From NCBI GenBank assembly GCA_045645285.1, contig JAZRIL010000006.1, positions 1,185-65,184 on the forward strand: a stretch of 64,000 nt of DNA, given 5' to 3'. The notes beneath the pieces are model-generated. The model was not told the DNA's origin. It made no database searches and saw nothing but the letters and a program-made list of their open reading frames with translations. This DNA is from Elusimicrobiaceae bacterium. GTDB lineage: Bacteria > Elusimicrobiota > Elusimicrobia > Elusimicrobiales > Elusimicrobiaceae. The position numbers and the translations under genes are program-made. Below, piece after piece: positions 4,036 to 61,401 of this stretch (position 1 is its first letter; each line of letters begins with the position of its first letter).

Positions 4036-4063
4036 TTGACAAATCAAAAAAAAAAACGATAAT
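4036..4063 (+). promoter_or_regulatory. pilin promoter cassette copy 1: TTGACA, 16-nt spacer containing A11, GATAAT
   Basis: TTGACA at 4036..4041, A11 at 4046..4056, GATAAT at 4058..4063. The block is nearly identical to 7827.., 36738.. and 60827... Confidence 0.7.
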
Positions 4064-4097
4064 AGAGTGTCGGACAAAAAAGACAAAGGAGAATTTT

Positions 4098-4778
4098 ATG
4101 GAAAGCAATAAATATAAAAAAATGTCATTCCCGAAATTCGTTGTCGGGAATCTTCCTCTTGTTAACTCGTTAATAAAAGAGGAAAAACAACTTTATTGTA
4201 TGCAAAAAGTGGAAGATCCCCGACAGAAACCCTCGGGGATGACATCTAATTTAATGGGCTTTACGTTAATAGAATTATTAGTTGTCGTTCTTATTATCGG
4301 TATTTTAGCGGCGGTGGCGTTGCCGCAATATACTTTGGCCGTCAACAAATCGCGGTTTGCCAATTTAAAAACTGCCGCACAATCCTTTGCTACGGCCGCG
4401 CAAGTGTATTATTTGGCTAACGGCACCTGGCCCGGTAATTTTGATGAATTGGCCATAGACGCCACCGCCGGATTTACCAAAACCAACAATCCCTATGGCG
4501 GCGGAGTCAATACAGGAACTTGTGCCGGTAATAATGAAATATATTGTTGCATTCTTCCGTCAGTAGAAGGGCAGTCTGCCAGCGTTATATGCGGACGCCA
4601 AGATTATTCTTTCGCCGCGATGCGTTTTTTAACGGACGAGCTAGATGATTGTATAGCAAAAACAACCGATACAAAAGCCGTCGCCCTCTGTAACGCGTTA
4701 GGCTCTTTTTACAGAACAGCCAATATGCCCACCCCGGAAGGCCACAAAAGCGGCTACAGTTATTACCGGTTGCCATAA
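4098..4778 (+). CDS. type IV pilin-like protein (prepilin-type N-terminal cleavage/methylation domain) with a 54-aa leader
   Basis: AAGGAG sits 7 nt upstream of ATG 4098. Motif G|[24 protein letters not shown] is present. The ORF-track start at 3933 runs through the promoter and was rejected. Confidence 0.8.
   Translation: MESNKYKKMSFPKFVVGNLPLVNSLIKEEKQLYCMQKVEDPRQKPSGMTSNLMGFTLIELLVVVLIIGILAAVALPQYTLAVNKSRFANLKTAAQSFATAAQVYYLANGTWPGNFDELAIDATAGFTKTNNPYGGGVNTGTCAGNNEIYCCILPSVEGQSASVICGRQDYSFAAMRFLTDELDDCIAKTTDTKAVALCNALGSFYRTANMPTPEGHKSGYSYYRLP
4124..4243 (+). mobile_element. 120-bp MITE-like palindromic element (two inverted family-1 hairpin units) in frame in the pilin leader
   Basis: Termini are GTCATTCCCGA...TCGGGGATGAC. 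Hairpins are ATTCCCGA/TCGGGAAT, CCTCTT/AAGAGG and ATCCCCGA/TCGGGGAT. A homologous copy lies at 36922..37053. Confidence 0.7.
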
Positions 4779-4810
4779 TTTTTGCCATACCCCTTACGCA
4801 AGCCCGCGGT

Positions 4811-4937
4811 AATTTCAAACTAATTTGGCGCGGGTCTAGGCACGCGCCGACGTAGCGTACATACGCAAACGGGGCGTAGCCCCGCGGGTACGTAAGGAGG
4901 CGCGTAACAACGAGCCGCACCAAATTAGGAAGAAATT
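4811..4937. repeat. family-2 nested palindromic element A (127 bp)
   Basis: TIRs are AATTTCAAACTAATTTGGCGCGG and CCGCACCAAATTAGGAAGAAATT. Internal TCTAGGCAC and TAACAAC boxes and GC-rich inner hairpins are present. An extra outer stem CTTACGC/GCGTAAG lies at 4793..4799 and 4945..4951. Confidence 0.65.
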
Positions 4938-7172: not shown

Positions 7173-7702
7173 TTGGCCTCCCGTCGTAAGGCATACCAAT
7201 ATCCGCCAATACCCGCGGCTAAAACAATATACACGGGCGACACCTTGACTAACCACACCAGAAGGGCTACGGTTATAGGTATCCACACCGTCTTCCAATG
7301 GATATGCGCCGCACGGGCTAAACGGAAAACCGGTACGGCAATCAGTGCCACTACCGCCGGGCGGACGCCTTTAAAAATCCGGATGACAAGGGGATTATGT
7401 TGATACGCGCGAAAGAAAAGAGCAATTAGCAAAATGATGACAAAGGACGGAAGTGCCGCCCCCGCCGCCGCGCAAATACTGCCGCGCGTACGGGCTAAAC
7501 GATACCCGGTCAAAATCGCTACGTTGGCCGCCATAATGCCCGGTGCGGCTTGCGCCAGGGCAATAATATCCAAAAAATCGGCACGCGTAAGCCACTTGTG
7601 TTTATCCACCAACTCTTGTTCCATCAGCGGCAACATAGCATATCCGCCGCCCAGCGTAAAGAGTCCGATTTTGGCAAATACGTAAAATAAAGAAAATAAC
7701 AT
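7169..7702 (-). CDS. chrA: chromate transporter (CHR family, short-chain), first half-size subunit
   Basis: 177 aa containing KIGLFTLGGGYAMLPLMEQELVDKHKWL and QAAPGIMAANVA. Confidence 0.8.
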   Translation of the reverse strand: MLFSLFYVFAKIGLFTLGGGYAMLPLMEQELVDKHKWLTRADFLDIIALAQAAPGIMAANVAILTGYRLARTRGSICAAAGAALPSFVIILLIALFFRAYQHNPLVIRIFKGVRPAVVALIAVPVFRLARAAHIHWKTVWIPITVALLVWLVKVSPVYIVLAAGIGGYWYALRREAK

Positions 7703-7826: not shown

Positions 7827-7854
7827 TTGACAAATCAAAAAAAAAAACGATAAT
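7827..7854 (+). promoter_or_regulatory. pilin promoter cassette copy 2 (TTGACA, A11 spacer, GATAAT)
   Basis: Differs from copy 1 at only 2-3 positions across about 68 nt, including the SD and the first codons ATGGAAAG. Confidence 0.7.
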
Positions 7855-7888: not shown

Positions 7889-8560
7889 ATGGAAAGAAAA
7901 AATCAGTTAAAGATTTGTTTGACCTCGCCCCTTGCGGGAGAGGATGCCCACAGGGCAGGTGAGGGGTGTAAAAAAGGAAATAACTTTATGGTTTCCCCCT
8001 CATCGGTTTGTTCGGACTTCGTCCGCCAAACCACTTCCCCCTCACAGGGGGGAAGCCATACGGCAAACAGCGGCTTTACGTTAATAGAATTATTGGTCGT
8101 CGTCCTTATTATCGGTATTTTGGCCGCCGTGGCGTTGCCGCAATATCAAAAAGCCGTTATCAAAGCGCGGTTTGCTAATATCAAAACTGTCATGGCAGAC
8201 ATTAAACGCGCCGAAGAAGCATACTATTTAGCCAACGGAGAATATGCGTTTGATTTGGATGCGCTGGCCACGGAAAGTTCATGCCAAAAATTGTCCGCCG
8301 ATGACGGCTCCACCTATACCTGCGGCTCTTACTTTGATGTGGATGTAATTGGAGCCGTACAAGCAGATGCGACCGCAAATCACCTGTACCTGGACGCTTA
8401 TTACTGTCCAACCGTAGCAAGCACCCATACCCGGGTTTCTCAGTGTTTGTCCGCCCGAGAATTTACCTACCGCGTTTGGTTAGATAATTCCTCCAATCCC
8501 GGAACAATCACCTGCACCGGCACGACGGCACTGGGTCAACAAATTTGCGCCAACCCGTAA
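7889..8560 (+). CDS. type IV pilin-like protein with a 71-aa leader
   Basis: SD AAGGAG and motif G|[28 protein letters not shown]. An alternative internal start at 7988 (AAGGAA upstream) cannot be excluded. Confidence 0.75.
7923..8055. repeat. array of four GC-rich hairpins inside the pilin-2 leader coding region
   Basis: The hairpins are CCTCGCCC/GGGAGAGG, TGCCC/GGGCA, GGTTTG(CGGAC/GTCCG)CCAAACC and CTTCCCC/GGGGAAG. All are translated in frame. Confidence 0.55.
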
Positions 8561-8654: not shown

Positions 8655-8712
8655 GATCTCTCTTTTTTATATCCCGCATAGAAAAACTGCGGGATGACGA
8701 AAAAAGAGAGAT
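8655..8712 (-). repeat. family-1 REP-like hairpin (core 8669..8700) inside outer stem CTCTCTTTTTT/AAAAAAGAGAG
   Basis: The reverse complement of the core is TCGTCATCCCGCAGTTTTTCTATGCGGGATAT. Confidence 0.7.
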
Positions 8713-8874: not shown

Positions 8875-10482
8875 TCAATTAAGCCAACCTTCTTGCTTGG
8901 CATAGTTGTAAATGCCGTTATAAATCCCTTGCGCCATTTTTTTCTGAACACTACTTTGGGTAAGACGGCCGCGGTCTTTACTGCTACTGATGTATCCCAT
9001 TTCTACCAAAATGGCGGGGCTTTGCACCCCTTTTAGAACGTAGAAATTGGCTTGGCGCACGCTGCTGTTTTTATTAACGGCAATACCGATGCCCGGCTGT
9101 TTATATACTTCATTACGCACGTAACCGGCCAGTTTGGAACTTTCGTTAATATATTCATTTTTAGCCAGCGATTGCAACAAAGCGTCCACAAAGTTATAGT
9201 GGACTTCTTCGTATTGCATGGCTTCGTTTTCCAACGCGGCGGTTTCGGCGGCTTCTTTGTCGGTGGCTTTTTCACTGCGGAAATAGACTTCAAAGCCGTT
9301 GGCGTTGCGGTTTTTGGAGGAGTTGGTATGCACGGATACAAACAGATCCGCCTTGAAATTATTAGCCGTTTTGGAACGGCCCGAAAGCGGGATAAACGTG
9401 TCATCTTCGCGCGTGATTTTGACTTCAAAATTTCCTTTCTTAAGCAGTTTGTATAACTCTTTACTTACTGCCAAATTGAGGTCTTTTTCCCGCACGCGCG
9501 AGCGGAGGGCTCCGGGGTCTTTACCACCGTGGCCGGGGTCTATGACAATGCGCATTTTTTTATGCGCGGAGGATATCGCGGCCACCGGACCGGCTTTCAT
9601 CACAACCGTCGGACTGGAGGCCTGCATGGTCAGTTGGGTGGCGGTAATTTGCGTTTCACTGGGCACCAACTCTTCGGCCGGCATTTCTTCAATATCTTGC
9701 GGCGCGGCCGCGGCGGGCGGCGTTTGTATTGGCTTAGAAGATGACAGCGGTGCTAGTTTGCCCGCGCCGACCCGGAAATAAATTTTCCCTTCGTTTTCTT
9801 CCACCGTCCAATGCGTGGCACGCTTGCCCAAAATGACGTGCAGTTTGGCGTCGGCGCGGTCTTGGCGGACAGAAACAGACGAGATGAAATCGGTTTTTAG
9901 ACGGAAGTTTTCATCGCGCTTGACGGTAATGTTCGGGAACACCACGTCCACCGTGTGTGCATTGGGCGACTCGGACGACCACGTTACAGGCCCGCGCGCC
10001 GCAAACACAAGCCGGTTTTCCGATGGCGTTAACTGATTATCCGTACGAGATAACTGAAACGGACGCTCCGCCAGCAGTTGGTCATCCGAAAAAGAAATTT
10101 CTTTACCCACGGCTTTTTGCACGTCCGGCAATAGGAAAAATTCCACCGGCACCAACATACTGCCTCCGTCAATTTGTACCGGAGCCGTTAATTGGGCGGT
10201 TTTGGCGTTGATGATAAATTCGCTGAGTCCCGCCGTTAAAATGGCATAAAATCCGCGGGCGGTCAGTTTGGCTTGCTTGGAACGGGCAAACAATTCCACA
10301 CTTAAACCCAAACTGCGGGCTGTTTTTTGCAAGTCCACATAGGTTACGCCGTTTTGCGTACGGCCGGAGAGCATCGTTTGTTTGCGCCCGGAAACCAGGA
10401 GCGGGATTTTATCTTGCCCATATACCGGACAAGACAAAATCCCTAACAAAATGATCCCTAGCAACCGTAACACACGTTCCAT
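8875..10482 (-). CDS. N-acetylmuramoyl-L-alanine amidase (AmiC-like, secreted)
   Basis: Start at MERVLRLLGIILLGILSCPVYG (signal peptide). C-terminal amidase_3 motifs are IDPGHGGKDPGA and FVSVHTNS. Confidence 0.85.
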   Translation of the reverse strand: MERVLRLLGIILLGILSCPVYGQDKIPLLVSGRKQTMLSGRTQNGVTYVDLQKTARSLGLSVELFARSKQAKLTARGFYAILTAGLSEFIINAKTAQLTAPVQIDGGSMLVPVEFFLLPDVQKAVGKEISFSDDQLLAERPFQLSRTDNQLTPSENRLVFAARGPVTWSSESPNAHTVDVVFPNITVKRDENFRLKTDFISSVSVRQDRADAKLHVILGKRATHWTVEENEGKIYFRVGAGKLAPLSSSKPIQTPPAAAAPQDIEEMPAEELVPSETQITATQLTMQASSPTVVMKAGPVAAISSAHKKMRIVIDPGHGGKDPGALRSRVREKDLNLAVSKELYKLLKKGNFEVKITREDDTFIPLSGRSKTANNFKADLFVSVHTNSSKNRNANGFEVYFRSEKATDKEAAETAALENEAMQYEEVHYNFVDALLQSLAKNEYINESSKLAGYVRNEVYKQPGIGIAVNKNSSVRQANFYVLKGVQSPAILVEMGYISSSKDRGRLTQSSVQKKMAQGIYNGIYNYAKQEGWLN

Positions 10483-10499
10483 AACAAACGGGGAATTTT

Positions 10500-11954
10500 T
10501 TATTCCAATACGATTTTGTAATCTTCCCACGCCAGTTGCGGATCGGCCTGGATTTTGAGCGTGCGGTGAATATTCTGCTCAATATCTTCCTGGCGCAGTT
10601 TAATAGCATCGGCCAACACCGGGTGCAATACGACGCGCAAATTTCCACCGGGACGGCCGTTAGTCAGGTCGTAAATTTCGCGCTGGATTTTAATACGCAT
10701 ACTTTCAGCCGATAAAACCCGGCCCGAACCGTGGCATTGGGGACATTCTTCGCTGATGAAACTGCCCGTACTGGCGCGTTTGCGCTCGCGCGTCATTTCC
10801 ACCAAGCCCAAACGGGTGATGGGTAAAATGCGGATTTTGGCCCGGTCGCCGCGGACGGCTTGCGCGAGTGCTTCCACCACGCGGTGACGGCTGGAGGCCT
10901 TGCGCATATCAATAAAGTCAATCACAATGATCCCGCCGATATTGCGCAAGCGCAGTTGGTGGGCGATTTCCTGTGCGGCTTCAATGTTGGTCTGCGTAAC
11001 CGTTTCTTCCTGCGATTTGTTACCGGTAAATTTACCGGTATTTACGTCAATAGCACAAAGCGATTCGGCCTCTTGGATAATAATACTTCCGCCGTTAGGC
11101 AAAGGCAGTTTAATTTTGCGTAAATTATCAATTTCTTTTTCCACATCGTACGCTTCAAAAATCGGCGTTTTGCCTTTGTAGAGTTTTACGCGGTCGGCCA
11201 GTTCCGGCGAGTTCTTGCTGACAAAATCCATCACGCGGTTGTAATCTTTTTCGTTATCCAACATATACACTTTGGCATTTTCGGATAACACATCCCGCGC
11301 CACTTGAAGTACGGCGTCCATGTCTTCGTGTAACAAGCGCGGCGAGCGCGATGTTTCAAACTTCTTGACAATGGATTGCCATTGGCGATAGAGATATTTA
11401 ATCTCGCGTTCCAGTTCTTCTTTAGTGGCTTCTTCGGCTTCCGTGCGGACAATGCACCCCATGCCGTTTAAATGCTTTTCGGCTAATTCTTGCATGATAT
11501 CGTTTAATTTATGGCGTGCTTCCACATCTTCAATGTGTTTGGAAACCCCGACGAAACTTTGGTGCGGCGTAAGCACTAAATAGCGGCCGGGCAAGGTAAC
11601 GTCCATGGTTACCTTCATCCCTTTGGTGCTGATAGCATCTTTGACCACTTGCACCATGACTTCTTGACCTTTGTGAAGGGTTTTATCTATATTCTTTTTA
11701 TCACCGCCGATAACATCGGAAATGTATAAGTAGGCGTTTTTTTCATAGCCGATATTCAAAAATGCGCTGGAAATACCGGGTAGTACATTTTCCACAGTAC
11801 CTTTGTAAATGTTACCTACAATGTTAAGCGCGCCGCGGCGTTCCCACAAGAGTTCGTTGACGCGTCCGTCTTCTAAAATCGCAATACGCGTTTCTTCAAA
11901 CGACGTATTGACCAATGCTTCCACTACCGGAAGTTCTTCGTTAAGTTTGCTCAT
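10500..11954 (-). CDS. rng: ribonuclease G/E family endoribonuclease
   Basis: 484 aa with an S1 domain (GNIYKGTVENVLPGISSAFLNIG) and DVNTGKF and IIVIDFIDM motifs. Confidence 0.88.
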   Translation of the reverse strand: MSKLNEELPVVEALVNTSFEETRIAILEDGRVNELLWERRGALNIVGNIYKGTVENVLPGISSAFLNIGYEKNAYLYISDVIGGDKKNIDKTLHKGQEVMVQVVKDAISTKGMKVTMDVTLPGRYLVLTPHQSFVGVSKHIEDVEARHKLNDIMQELAEKHLNGMGCIVRTEAEEATKEELEREIKYLYRQWQSIVKKFETSRSPRLLHEDMDAVLQVARDVLSENAKVYMLDNEKDYNRVMDFVSKNSPELADRVKLYKGKTPIFEAYDVEKEIDNLRKIKLPLPNGGSIIIQEAESLCAIDVNTGKFTGNKSQEETVTQTNIEAAQEIAHQLRLRNIGGIIVIDFIDMRKASSRHRVVEALAQAVRGDRAKIRILPITRLGLVEMTRERKRASTGSFISEECPQCHGSGRVLSAESMRIKIQREIYDLTNGRPGGNLRVVLHPVLADAIKLRQEDIEQNIHRTLKIQADPQLAWEDYKIVLE

Positions 11955-11988
11955 GTATCAAATCCTCACTTGGGGTATTTCCCCTGTT

Positions 11989-12687
11989 TTAAATCGGGTG
12001 AAACTCGCCTTGCGAATCCCGCCAACATAATTCCTGCCTGATAAAAACTAAACCTGCTAGCGCAATGTTTTCGTCCTGCGGCGGGATTTCTATCCCCGCC
12101 CACGCGGCGACAAACCATTGCGGACTCACCCATTGGCCGTCTACCGGAGCCAATAACAACATTATTTCATCCGGTGCACAAACACGGGCGTCAACCAATC
12201 CCGCCGTAATATTACGCTTGCGCACCGTCTGATCCGCGGACCGCAGGGTAACCGTAAGTTCCCCCACCTTGTTCCACGTTTCCAACTTCCGCCCGGAAGA
12301 AAGATACACAGAAAAATCCCCCTTCACCCGGTACCTGGCCGCGGCTGCCAAGTTCTGCACGGAGGGCAGCGGATACGGTACGCGCGTCAGTTGCAACAGT
12401 TCAAACCCCTTCGGGGCCGTTTGCAACAACGCTTGGCGTACTTCGTCTTCACTGCGTTTTTCCAGCAGATAAATATCCAGGTACTCGCGCTCGGCCCGCT
12501 GTCCTGTAGCGGGAGCCGGGCCGTACGCCAGCCGTGGCAAACTGGCCACAAACTTGGACGGCTCATACGGCAAGCCCGAGTCAAGCACCATTCTTTTTAT
12601 ACCGCGTAAAACGTGTGCATGCTCCGCTGGGTTACCTTGCCAACGGAACACTATACGCATTTTATAAATTTTTGGGGTGTAATTCAT
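11989..12687 (-). CDS. DUF2344/TIGR03936-like (radical-SAM-linked) protein
   Basis: 232 aa. Weak by-eye resemblance plus the commonly seen position upstream of rng. Low certainty. Confidence 0.45.
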   Translation of the reverse strand: MNYTPKIYKMRIVFRWQGNPAEHAHVLRGIKRMVLDSGLPYEPSKFVASLPRLAYGPAPATGQRAEREYLDIYLLEKRSEDEVRQALLQTAPKGFELLQLTRVPYPLPSVQNLAAAARYRVKGDFSVYLSSGRKLETWNKVGELTVTLRSADQTVRKRNITAGLVDARVCAPDEIMLLLAPVDGQWVSPQWFVAAWAGIEIPPQDENIALAGLVFIRQELCWRDSQGEFHPI

Positions 12688-36737: not shown

Positions 36738-36765
36738 TTGACAAAGCAAAAAAAAAAACGATAAT
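36738..36765 (+). promoter_or_regulatory. pilin promoter cassette copy 3 (TTGACA, A11 spacer, GATAAT)
   Basis: Same block as the other copies. It is separated from its SD by an inserted palindrome. Confidence 0.65.
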
Positions 36766-36787
36766 AAAGAGACGAAAAAAATATAAG

Positions 36788-36862
36788 GTCATTCTGAAGA
36801 CCGCGCCTCGTCATCCCGCAGTGTTGGTATGCGGGATATGGGCGCGGTGAGAAAGGAATGAC
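36788..36862 (+). repeat. three-layer nested palindrome with a family-1 core (36808..36839) in the pilin-3 5' UTR
   Basis: Structure is GTCATTC..ACCGCGCC-TCGTCATCCCGCAGTGTTGGTATGCGGGATAT-GGGCGCGGT..GAATGAC. Confidence 0.7.
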
Positions 36863-36889: not shown

Positions 36890-37543
36890 ATGAACAACAA
36901 AAGCCGTTATGAAAAAGAAGTGTCATTCCCGAATTTGCCCGTCCGGCAAGGACTCGGGAATCTTCCTCTTTCTAGGTCGTTATTAAAAGAGGAAAAACAA
37001 CCTTATTTTATGAAGAAAGTAGAAGATCCCCGACAGAAACCTTCGGGGATGACAACGCTTTTTTATAACGGCAACGGTGGTTTCACTCTCATTGAACTTC
37101 TTGTAGTTGTACTCATCATCGGAATTTTGGCGGCGGTGGCCCTGCCGCAGTATAAACAGGCCGTGGAGAAAAGTAAAATTATGCCTTATATTTCTTCTCT
37201 AAAAACACTGGCGCAGGCACAAGAAGTCTTCTTTTTGGCTAATGGCAGGTATAGTCTTTTTAGCCAAGATTTAGACATTACCGTCCCCTCTACTTGCACA
37301 ACAGTAAATGATAATGTTTTTAAGTGCGGAAATCTAGCATGGATGGAAATTTATAATGCCGAGACTAAAGCCCTACTTTTTGTATATTGTCCGAATAGTC
37401 TTCAATCTTGGGGCACGTGTAATGCTGCTAGTCATTTTGAGTTGAAATATAATTTAGAATCCGGTAACGCATCCTCGTCCGGGTGGGAATGTACCGTTAA
37501 AAACAATTCCTCTTTCGGAAAGTACTTCTGTAAAACTTTCTAA
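36890..37543 (+). CDS. type IV pilin-like protein with a 65-aa leader
   Basis: SD AAGGAG and motif G|[28 protein letters not shown]. Confidence 0.8.
   Translation: MNNKSRYEKEVSFPNLPVRQGLGNLPLSRSLLKEEKQPYFMKKVEDPRQKPSGMTTLFYNGNGGFTLIELLVVVLIIGILAAVALPQYKQAVEKSKIMPYISSLKTLAQAQEVFFLANGRYSLFSQDLDITVPSTCTTVNDNVFKCGNLAWMEIYNAETKALLFVYCPNSLQSWGTCNAASHFELKYNLESGNASSSGWECTVKNNSSFGKYFCKTF
36922..37053 (+). mobile_element. 132-bp MITE-like element, homolog of 4124..4243, in frame in the pilin leader
   Basis: Same termini GTCATTCCCGA...TCGGGGATGAC. About 85% identical to copy 1 apart from a 12-nt indel. Same reading phase. Confidence 0.7.
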
Positions 37544-53143: not shown

Positions 53144-53190
53144 CCCCCGCTCGTCATCCCGCAGTGTTTCTATGCGGGATATAGCGGGGG
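53144..53190 (+). repeat. family-1 REP-like hairpin (core 53151..53182) in outer stem CCCCCGCT/AGCGGGGG
   Basis: Core is TCGTCATCCCGCAGTGTTTCTATGCGGGATAT. Confidence 0.7.
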
Positions 53191-53204
53191 GCAATATATA
53201 TTTA

Positions 53205-53213
53205 TGCTAAAAT
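53205..53213 (+). promoter_or_regulatory. extended -10 TGcTAAAAT 6 nt upstream of ATG (leaderless-type)
   Basis: Sequence reads TGCTAAAATacccatATG. Confidence 0.45.
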
Positions 53214-53219
53214 ACCCAT

Positions 53220-53513
53220 ATGGGATATGTCTACATACTGACCACAAAAAATAACAAAATGCTCTATATCGGAGTTACAAATAATTTGCTACGACGTGTG
53301 TATGAGCACAAACAAGGTTTTGTGGAAGGTTTTACCAAAAGATTCCATATTAAAAAATTAGTCTATTATGAGCAATACAATTCCATTCAAGATGCCATAC
53401 AACGAGAAAAAGTCTTGAAAGAATGGAATCGCGCCTGGAAAGAATATCTAATAAATTCTTTTAATCCTTCTTGGAAAGATCTTTACGAAGAAATAGCCCC
53501 CTCTTTTTTATAA
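53220..53513 (+). CDS. small stand-alone GIY-YIG nuclease family protein (COG2827/YhbQ-like)
   Basis: 97 aa containing GYVYIL..LYIGVTNNLLRRVYEH...QREKVLKEWNRAWK. Confidence 0.85.
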   Translation: MGYVYILTTKNNKMLYIGVTNNLLRRVYEHKQGFVEGFTKRFHIKKLVYYEQYNSIQDAIQREKVLKEWNRAWKEYLINSFNPSWKDLYEEIAPSFL

Positions 53514-53517
53514 AAAC

Positions 53518-53561
53518 AACCCTTTTATTTATATCCCGTCTTCACACGTCGGACAAGGGTT
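53518..53561 (-). repeat. degenerate family-1 hairpin in outer stem AACCCTT/AAGGGTT
   Basis: Sequence is TATATCCCGTCttcacacGTCGGAC, which compares with TATATCCCGCA...TGCGGGATGAC. Confidence 0.45.
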
Positions 53562-53592
53562 AAGTCAGCGAGAAAGCAAAGAAACTAAAAAA

Positions 53593-53645
53593 CGCTCTCT
53601 TTTATATCCCGCATAACAACACTGCGGGATGACGAAAAGAGAGCG
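53593..53645 (-). repeat. family-1 REP-like hairpin (core 53604..53635) in outer stem CGCTCTCTTTT/AAAAGAGAGCG
   Basis: The reverse complement of the core is TCGTCATCCCGCAGTGTTGTTATGCGGGATAT. Confidence 0.7.
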
Positions 53646-54336: not shown

Positions 54337-54470
54337 TTGATGAGACCGACATCGATCTACTCTCTCAGCACCGAATTGGGTGCCAATACCATCGACCCTT
54401 ACGAGCTTAACTGCCGTGTTCGGAATGGGAACGGGTGTGACCTCGTCGGAATTAATATCAGTCTCATCAA
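54337..54470 (-). rRNA. rrf: 5S ribosomal RNA (ends approximate)
   Basis: The reverse complement contains CCCGTTCCCATTCCGAACACGGCAGTTAAGC and GAGAGTAG. Terminal helix is GATGAGAC/GTCTCATC. Confidence 0.85.
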
Positions 54471-54637
54471 AGCCTCTATGTTAAAAGAACAAATCGGAAG
54501 GAACCGTCGCTACAACAATTCCTTTCTCGTTAGAATCTTGCTCGCCGTGTTCTAGACGGGTCATCGCGTACTTCTAACGTCAGATAATAGAAAAGCGCAA
54601 GTGTTTCACTTACATATTCTATTGGATTAAAGAATAT

Positions 54638-57646
<3,009 letters not shown>

Positions 57647-57980
57647 ATATTCTTTAATCCTACAGATTTTGGTCATTTCAAATGCTAGATATTGCTATCT
57701 ATATTTTTAGGTATGATAACCATTAACTTTAAGTTAATTGTCTCATGCATCATTGTGTAAGTGTAAGTATATTTTTATCACATGTCAAATATACAAACGC
57801 TTGGCTTTTCTAAAATATACTTTCATTCTCTTTGCTACCCGCCGGACTTTTTATCAATTATAAGCCCAACTACTGGAGTCTTACAAGAGACGATTGAGTA
57901 TAAGTTATCTGATTTTCAAAGAACTACAAATCTGACGCAACATTTTATTTTGAAGTTGCAAGGTTTCTGGTTTAAAGTTG

Positions 57981-58053
57981 TGGAGCTGATCGGGATCGAA
58001 CCGACGACCTCCTGCTTGCAAAGCAGGCGCTCTCCCAACTGAGCTACAGCCCC
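57981..58053 (-). tRNA. tRNA-Ala (anticodon UGC)
   Basis: The reverse complement is GGGGCTGTAGCTCAGTTGGGAGAGCGCCTGCTTTGCAAGCAGGAGGTCGTCGGTTCGATCCCGATCAGCTCCA. Confidence 0.95.
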
Positions 58054-58066
58054 GTTAGTAAGTTGG

Positions 58067-58140
58067 TGGGCCCGGAAGGAATTGAACCTTCGACCTCACG
58101 CTTATCAAGCGTGCGCTCTAACCAGCTGAGCTACGAGCCC
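58067..58140 (-). tRNA. tRNA-Ile (anticodon GAU)
   Basis: The reverse complement is GGGCTCGTAGCTCAGCTGGTTAGAGCGCACGCTTGATAAGCGTGAGGTCGAAGGTTCAATTCCTTCCGGGCCCA. Confidence 0.95.
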
Positions 58141-58271
58141 AGGCTATTTAAAATAAAGAGCATAAACTCTGCAAAACCTTGCTATGTGCGAGTGGCCGAC
58201 TTGAACCAGACTGCGCGTAGCGCACCAGTCTATGGTTACCGACCTATTCTAACTTCCGAAGAAGAAAGAAT

Positions 58272-59783
<1,512 letters not shown>

Positions 59784-60826: not shown

Positions 60827-60854
60827 TTGACAAAGCAAAAAAAAAAACGATAAT
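60827..60854 (+). promoter_or_regulatory. pilin promoter cassette copy 4 (TTGACA, A11 spacer, GATAAT)
   Basis: Same block as the other copies. The uninterrupted UTR leads to SD AAGGAG. Confidence 0.7.
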
Positions 60855-60891: not shown

Positions 60892-61401
60892 ATGAAAAAC
60901 AGACAAGCATTTACGTTAATAGAACTACTCGTCGTCATACTCATCATTGGCATATTGGCAGCGGTGGCCCTGCCGCAATATCAAATGGCTGTCCTAAAAA
61001 GCCGTTTCACACAAGCAAAAGCAGTGGTTAATGCTCTGGCTCAAGCACAAGAAGTTTATTATTTGGCAAACGGAACATACAGTCATTCCTATGATGATTT
61101 AGATATTGACACGCCGGCGTATAAAGAGGAAACGGAAAATATAAGTGACGGAATTAACCGTCCGCATAGAATTTTTTCTTGGGGTGCTTGTACATTATGG
61201 CAGGTAGATGTTGTTTCTTGTCGGGTGGGCGATGTGCTGTACGAAAAATATTATGACCACTCCGCAAAGCCCGGAGTCACCCTTTGCAGTGTATACAATA
61301 CAGATCTTTCCTCTAACGAAAATAAACTATGTAAAAGCGAAACGGGAAAAACCGCCCCGGAAACAACAGGCGACAATTATGTGACATGGGTATACCCTTA
61401 A
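60892..61401 (+). CDS. type IV pilin-like protein with a canonical short leader
   Basis: Starts MKNRQA|[28 protein letters not shown]; 169 aa. Confidence 0.85.
   Translation: MKNRQAFTLIELLVVILIIGILAAVALPQYQMAVLKSRFTQAKAVVNALAQAQEVYYLANGTYSHSYDDLDIDTPAYKEETENISDGINRPHRIFSWGACTLWQVDVVSCRVGDVLYEKYYDHSAKPGVTLCSVYNTDLSSNENKLCKSETGKTAPETTGDNYVTWVYP

Follow-up and report, generated by a model that had tools for sequence, protein, structure and literature searches.

In-frame REP-type palindromic element within the predicted cleavable leader of a type IV prepilin gene in Elusimicrobia

The CGTC superfamily of repetitive extragenic palindromic (REP) sequences, which includes dRS3 of Neisseria as well as the Rickettsia palindromic elements (RPEs) RPE-4 and RPE-6, is built from a CGTC tag (with TGTC and CCTC variants), an 8-9-bp stem, a 4-5-nt loop and a 3-nt tail that is mostly CCA; its members are frequently inverted dimers with 20-100-bp spacers, and occasionally such dimers lie within genes, in frame, and contribute 20-30 or more residues (Di Nocera, De Gregorio and Rocco, 2013; PMC3733652). 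In an NTS-ssnA-NTS architecture, repeats of this kind enclose a gene of the Ssn family of GIY-YIG single-stranded DNA nucleases (Chenal et al., 2025; PMC11893778). In-frame palindromic repeats within genes go back to the description of the RPEs; what makes an insertion tolerable is a standing question. Here we analyse a 64,000-nt stretch of an Elusimicrobiaceae genome (contig JAZRIL010000006.1 of GCA_045645285.1; "the window", searched over its whole length), a gut-type Elusimicrobia genome with four type IV pilin paralogs in the window, the first of which (pilin 1) carries a 120-bp palindromic element in frame within its leader. We propose, with a probability of about 0.68, that the element is an insertion resembling a REP or a transposable element of the miniature inverted-repeat kind (MITE), translated as an extended leader and removed by prepilin peptidase. 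The features on which the argument turns, with a slash inside a peptide marking the processing site here and below, are as follows.

4036..4063, + strand: pilin 1 promoter, TTGACA 4036-4041, 16-nt spacer with A11 at 4046-4056, GATAAT 4058-4063
4086..4100, + strand: Shine-Dalgarno (SD) sequence AAGGAG 4086-4091, 6-nt spacer and ATG 4098-4100, read from the sequence
4098..4778, + strand: pilin 1 open reading frame (ORF), 226 aa by translation, beginning MESNKYKKMSFPKF, leader ending SGMTSNLMG
4124..4243, + strand: palindromic element, 120 bp, in frame, codons 9-49, termini GTCATTCCCGA and TCGGGGATGAC
4124-4152: left hairpin of the element, GTCAT-TCCCGA-N9-TCGGGA-ATC
~4155-4183: central CCTCTT/AAGAGG hairpin
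4215-4243: right, inverted hairpin
4244..4259, + strand: tail TSNLMG between element and cleavage site
36922..37053, + strand: 132-bp copy of the element in pilin 3, same codon phase

Class III signal peptides are recognised by a -1 G or A, a +1 F and a +5 E ahead of a hydrophobic helix of ~20 residues. The protein encoded by pilin 1, which is present in the protein database as an exact match (P0001), shows this pattern, with G, F and E at the three positions. Pfam PF07963 (N_methyl), which matches all four paralogs, covers residues 54-75 of pilin 1, a protein with an N-terminal methylation motif and helix. What pilins 1-3 lack is the short, positively charged leader: theirs are 54, 62 and 64 residues long, and that of pilin 4 is 6. 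In pilin 1, 54 residues, among them the peptide VEDPRQKPSGMTSNLMG, precede F55 (codon 4260), and the G54/F55 processing site (4257-4262) is followed by FTLIELL. The SD region, AAGGAGAATTTTATG, is identical in pilins 1, 2 and 3 (repeat family D12). Two internal ATGs, at 4201 and 4240, lack a comparable SD, the nearest candidates being a GAGG 18 nt from 4201 and a GGGG that abuts 4240 within a stem; starts at these codons would give MQKVEDPRQKPSGMTSNLMG/F and MTSNLMG/F, respectively. Named homologs of the pilin belong to Candidatus Avelusimicrobium, and the related contigs used below are Elusimicrobiaceae metagenome-assembled genomes.

The original prediction held that codons 9-49 of a 54-residue leader are encoded by a 120-bp palindrome, that a 132-bp copy occupies the same place and phase in pilin 3, with both copies free of stop codons and of lengths divisible by three, and that pilin 4 has the normal leader MKNRQA/FTLIELL; coordinates, translations and sequence agree with all of this. 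The two copies (0 stop codons in either) are 89% identical over 101 nt, and the 12-nt difference between them is an expansion of the left hairpin loop from 9 to 21 nt. The terminus pattern has 4 matches in the window against 0.73 expected, and the RNA fold of the 120-bp element (-48.7 kcal/mol) stands at z = -7.9 relative to dinucleotide shuffles, with z = -5.9 for the 132-bp copy, z = -3.6 for a further insert in pilin 2 and z = -5.1 for the whole 5' mRNA of pilin 1. Because terminus counts and fold z-scores both exceed expectation, the element is confirmed as a real, non-chance feature. An Rfam scan of the window returned the rRNA operon and tRNAs only, with no match at the element. The predicted architecture of two terminal inverted hairpins and a central one stands as sequence; in the minimum-energy fold, however, the two terminal hairpins pair with one another into one long stem, and the local hairpins are an alternative fold. 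This strong stem starts 26 nt past the AUG and leaves SD and AUG essentially unpaired, which is the outcome of the fold prediction around the start that had been proposed earlier. The label "MITE" fits in part: the element is small, with 11-nt terminal inverted repeats that have 1 mismatch, and its 120 bp lie in the 50-500-bp range typical of MITEs, but it is better described as a REP-type hairpin dimer and has no visible target-site duplication.

If the element is an insertion, orthologous genes lacking it should exist, and they do. We obtained the loci of close relatives through exact-protein look-ups and read empty and filled sequences directly (a pilin-alignment scan of genome contigs gave, among the matches listed, mostly distant species with short leaders). 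Two assemblies (L083 and L084) share the syntenic order gcvH-gcvT, pilin, YgjP-like gene, 243-aa gene, chromate transporters, pilin, with the same A11 promoter and SD, and at the positions of pilin 1 and pilin 2 they have 6-residue leaders, MKSTKA/F and MKNKQA/F. These are empty sites, of the kind that the original prediction had suggested looking for. In GCA_045606805.1 the syntenic ortholog of pilin 1 has yet another state, an 87-residue leader made from a repeat of the type seen in pilin 2. More broadly, about 45% of the best 120 homologs have leaders of 30-100 residues that are translations of many different GTCAT...ATGAC repeats. These long leaders start in three left-end phases (xSFP/xSSR, CHS/RHS and VIL/VIP) and end in only two right-end phases (GMT and DD); the third would read the TGA stop within ATGAC. 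The proposal that the cleaved leader is a permissive landing site is thus strengthened, and extends to a clade and to many repeat families, by the empty sites, the different element in an ortholog and the frame conservation described below.

The junctions carry further detail. The filled leader of pilin 1 is 144 nt longer than that of its empty ortholog, not 120 nt. Of the 24 nt in excess, about 11 nt flank the element on its left side and about 16 nt, encoding the tail TSNLMG, on its right. Tails of the form T-x-N/D-F/L-M-G or LFYNGNGG are limited, among the best 120 homologs, to element-bearing leaders. Since left junctions vary, right tails are conserved and a tail similar to TSNLMG also follows an intergenic copy (in contig L146), the comparison suggests that the mobile unit extends somewhat beyond the 120 bp. 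Separately, in some cases the insert sits immediately past the original cleavage site, with a duplicated stretch coding for G-F-T (or FTLIELL) on its flanks (L005 at 7517-7611, P0027, P0088; for example MNTKHTRRGFTQIK...HTAA/FTLIELL and MKNKQAFTWIELLYPAP...GG/FTLIELL), and these stretches look like either a target duplication or a recombination scar.

Now we consider the reading frame. Because gene callers bias protein sets towards long ORFs, we examined the DNA itself, independently of gene calls: for each pilin motif in the window and the related contigs, the interval from SD-ATG to G/F was checked. All 17 insert-bearing pilins (three in the window, two each in L081, L082, L085 and L086, and one each in L130, L173, L165, L135, L014 and L005) are in frame and stop-free from the SD-ATG. 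Four of them were found by the DNA hairpin pattern alone, and two (P0032 and P0069) had been annotated from internal ATGs though they are in frame with the upstream SD-ATG. We saw no out-of-frame insert in the window or the related contigs, and in short-leader pilins of close-relative contigs the SD-ATG always lies 4-9 codons upstream. With at least 9 distinct insert architectures, the chance expectation is (1/3)^9, or ~5e-5, stop codons ignored. Lengths tell the same story: eight copies of the family measure 120, 132, 120, 84, 84, 87, 132 and 114 bp, all multiples of 3, and among the matches listed 85 mostly intergenic two-hairpin elements are distributed 33:29:23 over length modulo 3, with no preference. 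Several homologous long leaders (P0051, P0013 and P0086, for example), DD-phase ones among them, contain no internal Met.

A second constraint acts on the hairpins. When 18 hairpins, taken from pilin leaders and from single-hairpin sites of the same design (family 1, below), are aligned, 144 of 144 stem cells are paired, with compensatory double changes at 4 of the 8 stem pairs (20 cells), a level that 0 of 500 shuffles reach and that collapses in slid-partner controls. These changes alter the encoded residues, as in FPKFVVGN, SSPRVSVGD and SSREVVARD. Since stems covary while residues change, the constraint is on the nucleic-acid hairpin and the open frame, not on the peptide.

How, then, might a gene for a surface structure accommodate such an insert? 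As is known, prepilin peptidase removes the leader after a Gly or Ala at -1, and that leader remains on the cytoplasmic side. Our proposal is that a small dimer of REP-type hairpins with TGTC tags, devoid of a gene, makes up the 120-bp segment and has become lodged in the DNA of the prepilin leader, and we infer that translation from the ancestral SD-ATG at 4098 reads through the repeat to give a 54-residue cytoplasmic leader that the peptidase would cut at G54/F55. If the leader is kept in the cytoplasm and cleaved behind the -1 Gly, as pilus biology leads one to expect, a long one should be harmless and the mature pilin unchanged. Being both cytoplasmic and discarded, the leader would ask of an insert only that it keep the frame and contain no stop codon; selection would filter insertions and later indels for both, and the hairpins would stay intact through a constraint, or turnover, at the DNA or RNA level. 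The repeat may have arrived by transposition tied to an Ssn-type unit, or by recombination among paralogs through their conserved promoter and N-terminal helix sequences.

Several observations weigh against this proposal. There is no consistent target-site duplication: the flanks read GT/AA in pilin 3 and, in pilin 1, an ambiguous AT/AT that may belong to the inverted repeat itself. In the DNA examined, the full-length 120-bp composite is confined to pilin leaders, and elsewhere there are hairpin modules and one partial copy (L146); gene conversion among paralogs, and not transposition, may therefore be the route of spreading. The in-frame cases are partly related copies and hence incompletely independent. 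Type IV pilin leaders are ~5-10 residues (type IVa) or 15-30 residues (type IVb) long, far shorter than those of pilins 1-3. At L003 (9800-10051), three repeats precede a pilin gene (10052) with 97 open codons and no canonical SD-ATG, and the only in-frame ATGs come from repeat ends (GGAATGAC). In pilin 1 itself, the right end of the element supplies the in-frame ATG 4240 and with it a leader of canonical length, MTSNLMG.

To place the repeat in a class we turn to its end hairpins, whose design is (C/T)GTC-AT-6 bp-loop(9)-6 bp-AT-tail. Family 1 comprises single hairpins built to this plan, which occur at four further sites of the window, 8668-8700, 36808-36840, 53151-53183 and 53603-53635, and the latter two enclose a gene.

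53151..53635, + strand: Ssn-like unit, a 97-aa GIY-YIG ORF at 53220-53513 between inverted family-1 hairpins
53151-53183 (+) and 53603-53635 (-): the two hairpins of this unit, CGTC tags outward

The product of 53220-53513 is a single-domain GIY-YIG protein (Pfam PF01541, E = 4.6e-16). We had considered this gene as a novel REP-associated enzyme and dropped the idea, the literature showing it to be of the published Ssn family. Measured against the CGTC superfamily, the tag is present (TGTC at both element ends, CGTC on the family-1 hairpins), and so is an 8-9-bp stem beginning A-T then T-A (ATTCCCGA/TCGGGAAT, ATCCCCGA/TCGGGGAT and ATCCCGCA/TGCGGGAT). The loops, at 9 nt (21 nt in two copies), fall outside 4-5 nt, and the 3-nt tails are CTT or CTC in the pilin copies and ATA in family 1, versus mostly CCA in the superfamily, although many environmental relatives do have CCA. 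The published SRM pattern, HGTCWY N0-2 YYVSBRH N0-5 WNVSBRG N0-2 RNCYNB, has 0 matches in the window even when its loop is relaxed to 21 nt, the departures from it lying in the tail, at one position of the stem and at the first base of the loop. Inverted hairpins flanking a small GIY-YIG gene are found for family 1, of which the pilin-leader hairpins are stem variants. Because the loops are 9 nt and the SRM pattern is unmatched, we file these hairpins as a variant of the superfamily of CGTC REPs, Neisseria NTS-dRS3 and Rickettsia RPE-4/-6, and not as a strict member of it. The pilin element appears to stand to the hairpin-ssn-hairpin unit as a MITE does to an insertion sequence, with the same outward-tagged ends and no gene.

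The class is widespread. A metagenome scan with the pattern GATCCCCGA-N9-TCGGGGATGAC found at least 120 stretches, which span a great diversity of environments and of G+C contents; among the matches listed, 85 of 134 have an inverted left partner and so form two-hairpin elements (median 79 nt), most of which lie outside long ORFs of the metagenome contigs. By tblastn, 10 of the 120 listed hairpin-selected contigs yield 11 further GIY-YIG hits, compared with 0 of 86 other loci. These homologs are mostly bracketed by an inverted hairpin pair (L132, L182, L114, L159, L199), and the bracketing stem sequence varies among contigs while agreeing between the two flanks. In a few cases the same two-hairpin class also lies in frame in unrelated proteins, as is published for CGTC REPs and RPEs (PMC3733652): in L160 in an aconitase of 963 aa, in L174 in a FolC-like ligase and in L195 in a histidine kinase. 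Three side observations belong here. Contig L199 has tandem arrays (~400-2700 and 11400-12500) of ~140-nt units with two different tagged hairpins, beside the GIY-YIG gene, which is present twice; among the environmental contigs L160, L174, L195, L110 and L185, one large secreted protein has several in-frame two-hairpin inserts; and environmental in-frame inserts yield the recurrent peptides LSSPNVSIGDP...SGMT and ...GND.

It remains to ask whether the data could be explained without a translated, discarded insert. The element might instead function as 5' untranslated region (UTR), with translation beginning at the internal ATG 4240 or 4201 and the frame from the SD-ATG being incidental or a regulatory upstream ORF. 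The terminal ATGAC of the repeat does supply an in-frame ATG with a leader of canonical length, gene callers picked internal starts of this kind for P0032, P0069, P0006 and P0042, the L003 gene has no canonical upstream start, and N-terminal REPs have been cautioned to be often annotation artefacts (PMC3733652). A UTR or an uncoupled upstream ORF would, however, escape the constraint seen in 17 of 17 in-frame, stop-free inserts with indels that are all multiples of 3. Moreover, the internal ATGs have no SD at functional spacing, MTSNLMG is uncharged, unlike the positively charged normal leaders MKNRQA and MKSTKA, and many homologous DD-phase leaders have no internal Met to start from. A purely 5' UTR element, which the original prediction had set up as the opposing case, is on this comparative evidence contradicted by the frame conservation, and we regard the explanation as unlikely. 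Two further readings fare far worse. An ancestral protein domain, conserved in a pilin subfamily and no DNA repeat, is scarcely credible as the nature of the long leader: although many homologs from several assemblies share the peptide LSFPKFVVGNLPL...KVEDPRQKPSGMT at one and the same position, empty sites or a different element are found in syntenic orthologs, compensatory stem changes rewrite the residues (the point on which this reading, also raised earlier, fails), the same hairpins are common in non-coding DNA of many phyla and flank the GIY-YIG gene, and the leader has no Pfam match. Nor, with only marginally better odds, would the element-bearing genes be decaying pseudogenes. Repeat insertion near a start codon is a common route of inactivation, but the ORFs are intact to the stop, the helix, Cys pattern, promoter and SD are kept, the frame is conserved in 17 of 17 cases and the state is common to many species. 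We rejected both readings on the strength of empty sites, covariation and intact ORFs.

A functional role for the hairpins is compatible with an insertion that is translated and removed, and so deserves separate weight. The dimer could have been retained at pilin 5' ends as an Ssn-type nuclease target that limits or channels recombination and transformation at pilin loci, as portable homology by which pilin cassettes are exchanged, or as an mRNA stem that tunes translation or stability, the open frame then being a mere cost of the position; we consider this possible, at perhaps one chance in several. Some 6 of the 8 hairpins of the window lie in or within ~130 nt of pilin genes, which make up ~6% of it, and the other 2 flank the Ssn-like gene. 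Hairpins are also found in pilin 5' UTRs and upstream of pilin promoters, stems are fully paired in diverged copies, and the stem close to the AUG is strong. In Neisseria, moreover, genes for surface proteins have NTS repeats clustered around them, and transformation is lowered by the cutting of SsnA at NTS (PMC11893778). Yet element-free orthologs exist, so that the element is dispensable; the same place is taken by many unrelated repeat families, as would be expected of a permissive site more than of one specific function; and with the published SRM pattern unmatched, local Ssn recognition is putative. A more specific and somewhat less probable idea, which we hold to be doubtful, makes the dimers functional components of a system of Ssn type (GIY-YIG, single-strand nuclease) marking the 5' ends of the large and variable family of pilin genes. 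Were it true, the mark would control exchange of pilin cassettes by transformation or recombination, or the mRNA stem would set expression, and the cleavable leader would be the sole coding place for such a mark. A translated insert in a removable leader is still the explanation that we prefer.

The remaining pilin genes and repeats of the window are listed below.

7889..8560, + strand: pilin 2 ORF, 62-residue leader
~7910-8070: in-frame insert of another repeat family in pilin 2, ending SPSQGG
8668..8700, - strand: family-1 hairpin, CGTCATCCCGCAG-loop-TGCGGGAT, ~108 nt downstream of the pilin 2 stop (ORF end 8560)
36778..36856, + strand: nested palindromic element in the pilin 3 5' UTR, within the promoter-SD interval, fold z = -5.0
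36890..37543, + strand: pilin 3 ORF, 64-residue leader, Pfam N_methyl match at residues 61-85
60892..61401, + strand: pilin 4 ORF, normal 6-residue leader, reference paralog
4036-4063, 7827-7854, 36738-36765, 60827-60854: pilin promoters, also found in L081, L082, L083, L086 and L165

The insert in pilin 2, which the original prediction overlooked, brings the number of paralogs with leader inserts to 3 of 4; its repeat is of a widespread type, CCTCTCCCTTGNGGGAGAGG...GGTGAGGGG, pieces of which are in the leaders of L082-8325 and L085-6265. The palindrome at 36778-36856 has outer GTCATTC...GAATGAC arms, inner GC-rich arms and, at its centre, the family-1 hairpin 36808-36840, and similar UTR inserts are seen in L081 (~9450-9525) and upstream of L086-15163. 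The four pilin promoters are near identical (TTGACA-AAKC-A11-C-GATAAT), with the same 28-mer upstream of all four (families D2/D3), and all four genes have an AAGGAG SD; the 28-mer is also present in 13 more promoters of related contigs, and a T11 variant (TTGACA-TCG-T11-GC-TACATT) is in 6. The A11/T11 tract has the look of a slipped-strand switch, and we considered phase variation; in 19 of 20 promoters, drawn from several assemblies, the homopolymer measures 11 nt, with a 16-nt spacer, and we rejected the idea in view of this invariance across consensus assemblies. Between pilin 1 and the YgjP-like gene (4790-4900) is a GC-rich palindromic stretch, CCCCTTACG...CGTAAGG, with inner hairpins and a fold only weakly above shuffles (z = -1.7), possibly another repeat type or a terminator region. 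A complete rRNA operon (minus strand, 54344-59783; 16S, two tRNAs, 23S, 5S) lies directly downstream of the Ssn-like unit.

What this locus adds to the old question of tolerable in-frame insertion is that repeats here gather in a coding segment that is, by prediction, discarded, so that the two surviving constraints, an open frame and an intact hairpin, are separately visible in the sequence record. The disposable leader seems to offer DNA repeats of a widespread class somewhere to settle without harm. For pilus biology, this predicts prepilins with 30-100-residue leaders of arbitrary sequence, which would probe the tolerance of prepilin peptidase and of membrane insertion. For annotation, it means that many Elusimicrobia pilin starts are inconsistently called, and that odd N-terminal "domains" are translations of repeats. 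It would also extend the Ssn/SRM architecture to gut Elusimicrobia, with repeats inside genes of an organelle of DNA uptake and adhesion. In-frame insertions of REPs and RPEs, REP dimers and the Ssn-repeat association are already published; in a limited literature search, neither the colonisation of prepilin leaders by repeats nor leaders of this length in Elusimicrobia turned up, and a class III signal peptide colonised systematically appears to be a novelty.

Comparison with the known systems makes the particulars clear. Like RPEs, the inserts are palindromic, in frame and stop-free in protein genes (RPEs add 20-80 residues, some of them N-terminal in expressed proteins), and they share with RPE-4 and RPE-6 the CGTC/TGTC tag and an 8-9-bp stem starting AT, a link that runs solely via the classification in PMC3733652. 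RPEs, however, are scattered in unrelated housekeeping proteins and stay in the mature protein, whereas the Elusimicrobia inserts are gathered in a single gene family and in a stretch predicted to be removed by proteolysis, have loops of 9 or 21 nt versus 4-5, and belong to another phylum. With CGTC REPs in general they have in common the unpaired tag, an 8-bp stem with A-T and T-A first, the short unpaired tail and the inverted dimers; they differ in the loop length outside 4-5 nt and in a CTT or ATA tail in place of CCA, and Elusimicrobia is not among the phyla described. The resemblance to Neisseria NTS/SsnA lies in the 97-aa GIY-YIG gene between inverted CGTC hairpins and in the clustering of hairpins at surface-structure genes, but the SRM pattern is unmatched in the window and the nuclease activity and specificity of the local homolog are putative. 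REPINs and the REP-associated tyrosine transposases (RAYTs; Bertels and Rainey, 2011; Nunvar, 2010) offer a parallel in two inverted hairpins that with their spacer form a long stem, and in a single-copy enzyme gene flanked by hairpins; here the enzyme is GIY-YIG and not an IS200/IS605-type tyrosine transposase, the tag is CGTC/TGTC and not GTAG, and no RAYT was seen in the window. Finally, as in type IVb pilins, the leader exceeds the 5-10 residues of type IVa and precedes a conserved site before the hydrophobic helix. Type IVb leaders, however, are 15-30 residues long and conserved within families, whereas those of the Elusimicrobia are 27-100 residues long and are made of interchangeable DNA repeats that are absent from orthologs.

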